From IMG/VR virus record IMGVR_UViG_3300012036_000005, positions 36,553 through 100,552 of that record: a stretch of 64,000 nucleotides of DNA; one strand, 5' to 3'. The position numbers were made by a program, and so were the translations under genes. The notes under the pieces were generated by a model. It saw nothing but the letters and a program-made list of their open reading frames with translations. It was not told the origin of the DNA and ran no database searches. Position 1 is the stretch's first letter. Each line of letters starts with the position of its first letter. This DNA is from a virus. Below are positions 18,836 to 61,566 of the stretch, piece by piece.

Positions 18836-19072
18836 TATAAAATCTTCGCTCTGTCCAACCTGCAACAGGCGGTTGGACGGAGCATCTGGTAACGGAACTC
18901 CCAAAGAAGGTGACATTTCTATATGTGCCTATTGTGAGAGTTTTGCATTCTACAACAAGGATCTTACGTTGAGACCTGCAACACTAAAAGAAACAGAAGA
19001 TCTTCTTAAAGAAGATGAAGTAAAAGAAATCATGTTAGCTGTACGAAATGTATGGGGAAAGAGTTTGCACTA

Positions 19073-19519
19073 ATGGACATCATTTTTGATATTGATGGAA
19101 CTTTGGCTAATATTGAACATAGACGTATCTATGTTCAATCTAAACCGAGAAATTGGAAAGCCTTTAATAAAGCCATTCCTCATGATACACCGATTCTTCA
19201 AACTACAACATTGCTTGAACTATTATATAATGCAGGACATACTATTCTTTTGGCATCTGGCCGTGGAGAAGAAACTAGACAAGATACACTTGATTGGTTA
19301 AAGAAATATAATCTCGACTCTTATGTAACCAAGCTCTACATGAGATCAGCAAAAGATATGAGATCGGACGACATTGTTAAGAGAGAGATCCTTGCTCAAA
19401 TAAGAGAAGATGGTTTTGAACCTTTCTTTGTGGTAGACGATCGACCTAAAGTTGTTCGTATGTGGAGAGAGGAAGGTATCTTTGTTTTTGATGTAAATCA
19501 AACAGGTGAGGAATTCTAA
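19073..19519 (+). CDS. HAD phosphatase resembling the T4 PNK 3'-phosphatase domain
   Basis: FDIDGTLA, SGR, LYMR...D..VK, VDDR..VV.MWR. Confidence 0.88.
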   Translation: MDIIFDIDGTLANIEHRRIYVQSKPRNWKAFNKAIPHDTPILQTTTLLELLYNAGHTILLASGRGEETRQDTLDWLKKYNLDSYVTKLYMRSAKDMRSDDIVKREILAQIREDGFEPFFVVDDRPKVVRMWREEGIFVFDVNQTGEEF

Positions 19520-34316: not shown

Positions 34317-34408
34317 GATGTCACGGACTTAAACGGGATCGATAATACTGAATAGACCGCAAAAGTTGAGTCCTTCGACCGATCAAGGAACAGTATCCAA
34401 GTGACGTC
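34317..34408 (+). ncRNA. Unknown pseudoknotted RNA motif, copy 1 (copy 2 at 61488-61566)
   Basis: Conserved core ACGGGATCGATAATACTG.ATAGACCGC...GATCAAGGAACAGTATCCAAGTGA with covarying helix. Confidence 0.7.
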
Positions 34409-34497: not shown

Positions 34498-34608
34498 ACG
34501 AATAATGCGGATGAAGAAAACTGGGTTATCTTGAAACAATAAGATCCCTCGGGCAACAGCCTTGTCGGGACAAGCTAGGTTCGATTCCTAGACGCATTAC
34601 TAATCACT

Positions 34609-40944: not shown

Positions 40945-41014
40945 CGTTGACAAAATGTATAGGAAGTGTTATAAATATACTTGCAACGTTGAAGCAAACT
41001 CAACGTTAGACAGG
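40945..41014 (+). repeat. 70-bp direct repeat of the tmRNA promoter/5' segment (second copy 41416-41485)
   Basis: Identical except for one T/C position. Confidence 0.95.
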
Positions 41015-41060
41015 GCACCGGGAGTTCGAATCTTGGTCTTTATATTAAGATAGAGAATAA

Positions 41061-41201: not shown

Positions 41202-41451
41202 ATCTAGGAGTTTATAAAAAATGAATTATTATAGATACTATTGTAAGAAGACTTTAGAAAAAACTGGTGATATTGACCTTAGTTTTAAAAATGGAATAAA
41301 ACTATGTAAACATAAAGAAAGAATGGCAATATTATACAGACTATTTGGTGCGCTCTTATCTTTATCTATAGTTGGAGCAATAATATTAATAACAATAGAA
41401 ATACTCGTTAATAACCGTTGACAAAATGTATAGGAAGTGTTATAAATATAC

Positions 41452-41784
41452 TTGCAACGTTGAAGCAAACTCAACGCTAGACAGGACTCCGGGGCAGTGC
41501 CGGACAGGTCCACCATAAGCACAACGGTCGCATTTAGAGTAATTGTCCGGTTGCGATAAGTTGGGATCACATACCGTTGTGCTTATGACGGGCCTGAAAC
41601 AGGATCGACTGTTAGTCATTAGGTGAGTGGAGTTGTCCGGATCTAAGCTCGGTTAACGCGAAGAACAACTGTAAATGCAGCATCTAATGCAGCAAATGAT
41701 AATTTCGTAATGGACCAAAGCCTAGCGGCTTAATCCTTATGATTTAATCGGGGCTCGGAGGCGCCTGGCAACAGAAGCCTCCAC
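41452..41784 (+). ncRNA. ssrA: Circularly permuted (two-piece) tmRNA, alphaproteobacterial type
   Basis: Acceptor piece ending CAGGTCCACCA (41515), paired intervening segment, coding piece from GGGCCTGAAACAGGATCGAC (41590); tag frame ...ANDNFVMDQSLAA* (41677-41733). Confidence 0.92.
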
Positions 41785-60070: not shown

Positions 60071-60926
60071 ATGGGCGGTGTAGCGTCCATAAGGGCAGGT
60101 GCAGCAATGCACTTAAAGGTAGGAAGCCTACATACTACCACTAACAGCAATGTTAGCCCAACTATGCAAGCCTGAATTAGATGATGCCGGTAATCATTCC
60201 GTAGCATGTCCCATCCTTAGGAAGGTGGTAAGCTTGAAGATAGTAAGACAGTCCGAAAGGATAACACTGGAGCCAGTCGGTGAGGTGTAATGCGGTTGGC
60301 GCCGCTACTGACTTAGCCAAACTATCGAGAGCCTAATACTAACAGGTAGGACAGAGTCTGATCGTTAGCGCGAAAAGGCGACGTCCATCACAAACGAAGA
60401 AGGGTGAGAAGCCCGGAAACGTGAAGTGAGGCTTAGTACCCCGCAAGGAGAAAAGCAGGTGGTGTGTTGTATTTTGTATCTAACAAGGTACGAAGCAACT
60501 GGGGCAGCACATCGCAGTAGGTTGCAATATAGCCAAACGGTAAAGGCAACGGTTTCTAAGACCGTCGATTACAGGTTCAAATCCTGTTATTGATAAAAGC
60601 AAAGACTGGCCCGGTCGCATGTTAAAGATGCCTAATGCTAAACCTCGGTGAGGAATTTAGCACACCGGAGCTCGCAAGGCAAAGGTGTTTGTTGGAAGTG
60701 AAGACGTAAAGGGTTAGCGCCTTTGAATTGCTCGCAAGGCAAGCGGAAGAACGAACGACGAGTAGCATGTGACGACGAGTGAAAAGCGACACTCTCAAAA
60801 ACGCGGCATTGGTTGATACTAGGGTAGTTGTTTACAACACTTTAGTGGATAAGGAATTAACATGCCTCGCAAGGGCATGGTACGGTTCTACTAAAGGCAA
60901 CCATTAAAACGTGTAATCTCAGCGTT
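60071..60926 (+). ncRNA. Large ornate ncRNA, GOLLD-like
   Basis: About 850 nt GC-rich ORF-free region with many GCAA/GAAA-capped hairpins, in a tRNA cluster, own promoter; family by recall only. Confidence 0.65.
60523..60594 (+). tRNA. tRNA-like domain with CTA anticodon embedded in the large ncRNA
   Basis: D arm TAGCCAAACGGTAAAGGCA, ACGGT-TT-CTA-AG-ACCGT, ACAGG-TTCAAAT-CCTGT; 5-bp acceptor, no CCA. Confidence 0.7.
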
Positions 60927-61397: not shown

Positions 61398-61487
61398 AAA
61401 ATTTAAAAGAAAATGTCTAAACATATCTTTGCAGCAAACGAAGATTCTCAAAAATTTAAAGGATAAAATTTTAATTTAGAATGACCA

Positions 61488-61566
61488 GAACTTGGACGGG
61501 ATCGATAATACTGTATAGACCGCACCACTGAGTTTATCGGCGGATCAAGGAACAGTATCCAAGTGA
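61488..61566 (+). ncRNA. Unknown pseudoknotted RNA motif, copy 2
   Basis: Matches the 34317-34408 core with compensatory changes. Confidence 0.7.

Follow-up and report, generated by a model that had tools for sequence, protein, structure and literature searches.

The tRNA cluster of phage T4 encodes two small stable RNAs, species 1 and species 2, which are 120–140 nt long and whose function is unexplained. Small RNAs of this kind inside phage tRNA clusters are already known; no known family fits the element described here. Like species 1 and 2, the candidate RNA lies as a non-tRNA among phage tRNA genes and would presumably be cut from the same precursors. It differs from them in its size, about 80 nt, and in being present in two copies. 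The phage that carries it also encodes GOLLD RNA and a permuted tmRNA, which lie in the same genome, on the same strand and in or next to the tRNA island, as the element does. Unlike GOLLD and tmRNA, which have many relatives, the element has none that we found, and it shares no sequence similarity with either.

Theta ribozymes of gut phages are HDV-like RNAs of phage tRNA clusters that cleave at most 5 nt from a tRNA (PMC10879173). The element resembles them as a small sense-strand RNA in a phage tRNA cluster, and the loop on its 3-bp inner stem could pair with a segment after the first helix (P1), as in P3/P1.1 of HDV. However, the nested double-pseudoknot order P1-P2-P3 of HDV and theta ribozymes is absent from both copies, the loop has 20 nt instead of about 7, and no catalytic C of J4/2 can be placed. 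In addition, no HDV-type model of Rfam matches, and the element lies 27–35 nt (tRNA-His) and 90 nt (tRNA-Leu) from the tRNA ends. A preliminary description of the locus had drawn the analogy with theta ribozymes; at these distances, it is weak.

Fluoride, preQ1 and SAM-II riboswitches and the pistol ribozyme provide another comparison, since in them, as in the element, a hairpin loop can pair with a downstream tail over an A-rich linker. Like hairpin-loop-to-tail pseudoknot RNAs, the element has conserved loops and a variable stem. Unlike pistol, it has no P2/P3 hairpin after the tail pairing. It has no expression platform, and the Rfam models of these families gave no match at E ≤ 10.

The phage and its tRNA island

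The source is an uncultured lake phage. The window, that is, the whole stretch of 64,000 nt analysed here, corresponds to bases 36553–100552 of a 100.5-kb IMG/VR record, for which CheckV estimates a completeness of 29%. Lake-water metagenomes contain near-identical DNA, and no close cultured relative of the phage was found. The record carries genes for rIIA/rIIB, ribonucleotide reductase, two RNA ligases, a CCA-adding enzyme and NAMPT. In the window there are 36 tRNA genes and the permuted tmRNA gene, all on the + strand (37/37), and GOLLD RNA at 60459–60925. The RNA repertoire of this phage is unusually large, comprising GOLLD, the permuted tmRNA, amber-anticodon tRNAs and several other RNA candidates, and large phages with tRNA islands are proving rich in unexplained RNAs. 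The island spans 28 kb (window 33457–61397), and the two copies of the element lie near its two ends, like direct repeats.

Two diverged copies with invariant blocks

The element occurs twice in the window. Its parts were defined by alignment of the two copies, and a covariance model (R1) was built from both.

34325–34404, + strand: copy 1, core element, 80 nt (model R1, 111.9 bits)
34333–34360, + strand: copy 1, block 1, 28 nt; 27/28 identical to 61496–61523, with one A/T difference
34381–34404, + strand: copy 1, block 2 (3' tail), 24 nt; 24/24 identical to 61543–61566
61488–61566, + strand: copy 2, core element, 79 nt (model R1, 105.3 bits)
61496–61523, + strand: copy 2, block 1
61543–61566, + strand: copy 2, block 2

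Block 1 of copy 1 contains a CGG/CCG stem (34334–36 with 34357–59) and the 20-nt loop, which carries GATC (34337–40) and ATACTG (34345–50). Block 2 of copy 1 consists of GATC (34381–84), an A-rich linker, CAGTAT (34391–96) and an 8-nt end, in this order. Copy 1 comes after the second tRNA gene of the island and is flanked by tRNA-His (end 34289) and tRNA-Arg (start 34420). Copy 2 comes after the last tRNA gene of the island and of the window; it begins 90 nt past that gene, tRNA-Leu (end 61397), and 50 nt downstream of it is an ORF of 131 codons (ATG 61617) with a ribosome-binding site. Thus, the two diverged copies in the tRNA cluster, downstream of tRNA-His and tRNA-Leu, are located as first described, and the shared blocks are as described too.

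Each block occurs twice in the window, where about 0.03 (block 1) and 0.00 (block 2) occurrences are expected by chance. No third copy was found in the whole 100-kb record by model R1 or by blastn with short words. The similarity between the copies fades about 20 nt upstream into an AT-rich background and ends right after block 2. Only 1 of 52 block positions is substituted, whereas 11 of 27 alignable positions in the stem and linker are (Fisher p = 1.4e-5), so the blocks are under selection. Because the variable parts are near saturation and the flanks of the two copies are unrelated, the element, judged from its sequence, was duplicated long ago and not recently, and its blocks have been under strong purifying selection.

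Two other readings of the repeated sequence were rejected. No conserved ORF crosses the element, which rules out a conserved small ORF. A MITE was also rejected, as the terminal inverted repeats lie at non-homologous positions in the two copies.

The P1 stem

Block 1 is enclosed by a helix, P1, the strands of which are variable in sequence.

34325–34332, + strand: copy 1, P1 5' strand; pairs with 34366–34373 (8 bp, one G-U; duplex −8.7 kcal/mol)
34366–34373, + strand: copy 1, P1 3' strand; pairs with 34325–34332
61488–61495, + strand: copy 2, P1 5' strand; pairs with 61528–61535 (8 bp, three G-U; two pairs changed on both sides)
61528–61535, + strand: copy 2, P1 3' strand; pairs with 61488–61495

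P1 is fully paired in both copies despite six substitutions, which make up two compensatory pairs (two G-C/A-U exchanges) and two one-sided changes (two shifts to G-U). The claim that the first helix covaries was therefore borne out. In 200,000 simulations, in which the same number and type of substitutions were placed randomly in the variable region, all eight pairs survived in 0.65% of runs, and survived with at least two compensatory pairs in 0.31%, in a test that was chosen post hoc and concerns two sequences. A shuffle control of the covariation score, which has no power with two sequences from one genome, reached the observed score in 117 of 500 shuffles. The G-U pairs of P1 would be A-C mismatches on the opposite strand. 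This indicates that the structure belongs to an RNA of the + strand, which is also the strand of all 37 tRNA and tmRNA genes.

Possible loop-tail pairings and competing folds

As the preliminary description stated, the CGG/CCG stem nests inside P1, and it does so in both copies. The complementarities GATC/GATC and ATACTG/CAGTAT between loop and tail are likewise present in both copies and in crossing order. The inner stem and the two loop-tail helices comprise 13 pairs, all invariant between the copies. A 6-bp Watson-Crick match between loop and tail arises in 5.8% of shuffles, and one accompanied by a crossing 4-bp match in 0.5%, a comparison chosen post hoc.

Other folds compete with these pairings. 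RNAalifold favours a local, interrupted 3' hairpin of the tail, which reaches 4 nt past block 2. In the minimum-energy fold of copy 2, P1 gives way to a helix of 7 bp, in which its 5' strand pairs with the tail, and this helix stacks on the same 6-bp pairing, which there is nested and not knotted. The alternative helix of copy 2 has an energy of −7.9 kcal/mol against −5.0 for its P1, whereas copy 1 prefers P1 (−8.7); the minimum-energy folds of the two copies thus disagree. The stability of the nested folds is ordinary (z = −0.86 and −1.04). A further helix can be drawn outside P1 in copy 1.

34317–34324, + strand: 5' strand of an outer helix, copy 1 only; pairs with 34401–34408

This helix falls within the coordinates given in the preliminary description; when the alignment is read column by column, copy 2 retains only 4 of the 8 pairs. 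The locus had been called a covarying double pseudoknot, a name that is not supported as it stands. The crossing complementarities exist, but P1 alone covaries; the other three helices are invariant, and other folds compete. A double pseudoknot is a possible, permitted reading of the putative helices.

Comparison with known families

Both copies were compared with the 4227 families of Rfam 15 by cmscan with permissive filters. Copy 1 had no match at E ≤ 10, the hits for copy 2 were all unrelated noise and lay almost entirely in flanking sequence, and nothing passed a gathering score in either copy. The covariance models of hammerhead, twister, twister-sister, pistol, hatchet, hairpin and glmS matched neither copy. 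A scan for HDV-like topology (P1 6–7 bp, P3 3 bp, L3 5–10 nt, P2 3–8 bp) gave 0 solutions in copy 1; those for copy 2 were all AU-rich and lay upstream of the element. No C occurs in AAGGAA, the linker that precedes the last pairing, and the position of J4/2 depends on the fold. These results agree with the earlier statement that the element does not fit HDV, twister, pistol or hammerhead, as Rfam is empty and the HDV-like scan has no solution shared by the copies. Literature searches found no description of the motif.

Several other identities were also considered. The RNase P model gave no match at E ≤ 10, and inspection showed no CR-I/CR-V-like pairing; a miniature phage RNase P RNA was rejected, the element having 80 nt where that class has about 200 nt or more. 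A ToxI-like RNA or CRISPR-repeat mimic was set aside, as the copies are not tandem and no resemblance was seen, and so was an rRNA mimic, for which only 7–8-mer resemblances at chance level were seen. A link to the ATAGA-loop hairpins of NAD-salvage leaders was dropped because hairpins of this type show no enrichment (5.96%, where the mean over all pentamers is 5.95%).

Search for relatives

IMG/VR was searched with exact and gapped patterns, one of which let both proposed pseudoknot helices covary freely; the outcome was either no match or chance matches in coding regions, and no homologue. Two 14-mers were also searched in IMG/VR, and no second block accompanied them among the matches listed (237 loci, nearly all from these two). 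The gapped pattern had one chance match in JGI metagenomes and four in GTDB genomes, and nothing else in either. With 11-base words, blastn found nothing real in GenBank phages and no match in E. coli genomes. Four lake DNA runs contained only the two known copies, unchanged, and no new variants. Among the sequencing runs listed as containing the phage, none was an RNA run.

Use of rIIA as bait yielded no relatives. The closest phage found is 59% identical in a protein of 704 aa; its whole 117-kb record, tRNA cluster included, lacks the element. In this relative, other genes follow tRNA-Leu (L241) and tRNA-His (L251). The ORF after tRNA-His (19012–19500 of record G001) has a GIY-YIG-like N-terminus by eye. 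Searched with model R1, the whole records of two related phages gave no hit, nor did 96 kb of them with filters off. As a separate observation, protein P0001 (identical) was found on a 186-kb contig and P0002 (80% identical) on a 3.6-kb contig.

Below about 90% identity of the blocks, a homologue escapes exact-pattern scans, and a diverged family may exist beyond their reach. The searched collections are unlikely to contain a large family whose core is fixed.

Transcription and proposed function

A promoter-like site precedes copy 2.

61455–61482, + strand: promoter-like site, TTTAAA, 16-nt spacer, TAGAAT; 9/12 consensus matches, not above shuffle expectation

It ends 5 nt before P1 of copy 2 and may give that copy a transcript of its own; copy 1 lacks an equally good site. 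A terminator-like site was found neither after copy 1 nor after copy 2.

The element is probably a functional structured RNA module of the + strand, with a proven-looking stem and an unusually constrained core of 52 nt. How it works can be proposed more tentatively. The explanation we prefer, and hold with somewhat less than even confidence, is that tRNA enzymes release the module, that its hairpin docks on its tail, and that the invariant core acts in trans on one fixed partner. A small, independently folding module would be made from the + strand, copy 1 within the tRNA-cluster transcript and copy 2 by read-through or from its own weak promoter. The 8-bp P1 and the 3-bp stem would close the 20-nt invariant loop, followed by the 24-nt invariant 3' tail. 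The loop would most likely dock on the tail via the 6-bp AUACUG/CAGUAU pairing, and perhaps via GAUC/GAUC as well, to give a compact knotted core. The module would be freed by tRNA-processing enzymes: RNase P may cut 11–15 nt downstream of copy 1, and 3' trimming may act on the upstream tRNA. Once freed, it would be a small stable RNA whose nearly invariant core contacts the fixed partner, and this partner may be an RNA, a protein or a small ligand. The preferred explanation gives the element no role as a tRNA-releasing ribozyme of the theta/HDV type. Against it stand the facts that there are two sequences from one genome, that fold stability is ordinary, that the minimum-energy folds disagree and that no homologue was found.

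Alternative explanations

An invariant core of 52 nt exceeds what a protein site or an sRNA seed typically needs, and a catalytic or ligand-binding core fits better. Such a role is kept alive because the invariant core is large. It is nonetheless unlikely that the element founds a new class, be it of small self-cleaving ribozymes or of ligand-sensing RNAs, with a hairpin loop docked twice on the 3' tail, inside tRNA-cluster transcripts. Cleavage or ligand binding would make it a new class; failing both, it joins the orphan small RNAs of phage tRNA clusters. Since the two sequences come from a single phage, it is for now of value as a bench candidate and not as an established family, and it is short enough for cheap in vitro transcription, probing and cleavage assays.

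The cleaving form of this idea, a new small ribozyme that cuts tRNA-cluster transcripts with loop and tail as its catalytic core and P1 as a variable scaffold, is rather improbable as judged from the sequence. With a stem that varies but is compensated, about 52 nucleotides of junction and loop that do not vary, and crossing pairings that may form, the element has the usual look of a small ribozyme, no known family matches it, and it is located in a phage tRNA cluster, where HDV-like theta ribozymes work (PMC10879173). However, no cleavage site can be named, HDV-like topology is absent, and the spacing from the tRNAs (27–35 and 90 nt) is atypical of a tRNA-releasing ribozyme. Furthermore, the known classes are widespread while this motif was found in a single phage, and most conserved RNA motifs are not ribozymes.

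The copies might also act as DNA: as a promoter or operator, or as a recombination or homing-endonuclease site duplicated near the ends of the tRNA island. A weak −35/−10-like pair with a 17-bp spacer overlaps both copies and ends in block 1, the blocks contain short palindromes, and the copies follow the second and the last tRNA genes of the 28-kb island like direct repeats flanking a cassette. Nevertheless, promoter-like matches are no commoner here than in shuffles, and a start at this place would leave the P1 5' strand in an untranscribed spacer and its compensatory changes unexplained. Repeats of the att type have one continuous identical core, not conserved blocks separated by a variable part, and the G-U pairs of P1 are meaningless in duplex DNA. 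A site of this kind therefore fits the compensated, G-U-containing stem poorly, and we regard it as very unlikely.

Still less can be said for a cis-acting aptamer or riboswitch-like sensor, in which the P1 5' strand would pair by turns within P1 and, over a long range, with the 3' tail; we consider it highly improbable. The two mutually exclusive folds would suit it, copy 1 preferring P1 and copy 2 the alternative 7-bp helix; in the P1 3' strand, one column shows covariation with either of its two potential partners, and an ORF that has a ribosome-binding site begins 50 nt after copy 2. Yet this evidence for an alternative fold comes from two sequences, no riboswitch family of Rfam matches, and no obvious platform for sequestering a Shine-Dalgarno sequence was seen. 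The lack of a terminator, together with a tRNA gene instead of an ORF after copy 1, argues against a classical riboswitch.

A decaying, non-functional duplication that resembles a structure by chance would suit the mere two copies, the absence of relatives and the unremarkable folding energies, but it is the least probable reading, because neutral loss cannot give 1/52 changes beside 11/27 (p = 1.4e-5), would rarely keep all eight P1 pairs (p < 0.01) and fits poorly with a stem that is compensated and contains G-U pairs.

Other features of the tRNA island and its surroundings

Three further features were observed in the window.

34503–34599, + strand: tRNA-like fold between tRNA-Arg and tRNA-Tyr
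40945–41022 and 41416–41493: direct repeat of 78 nt, 96% identity
62202–63978, + strand: tandem array of at least five paralogous small ORFs

The tRNA-like fold was called neither by ARAGORN nor by the Rfam tRNA model. Its acceptor-like stem has 7 bp, its T-arm is canonical and its extra arms are long, and its sole match is to a tRNA-Sec alignment, at 11.7 bits. The direct repeat carries a strong promoter of the TTGACA/TATAAAT type and precedes two different ncRNA genes, one of which is that of the tmRNA. The array of small ORFs lies directly downstream of copy 2, and its members show repeated YxNG..HR.DGPA motifs, which are MORN-like by eye.
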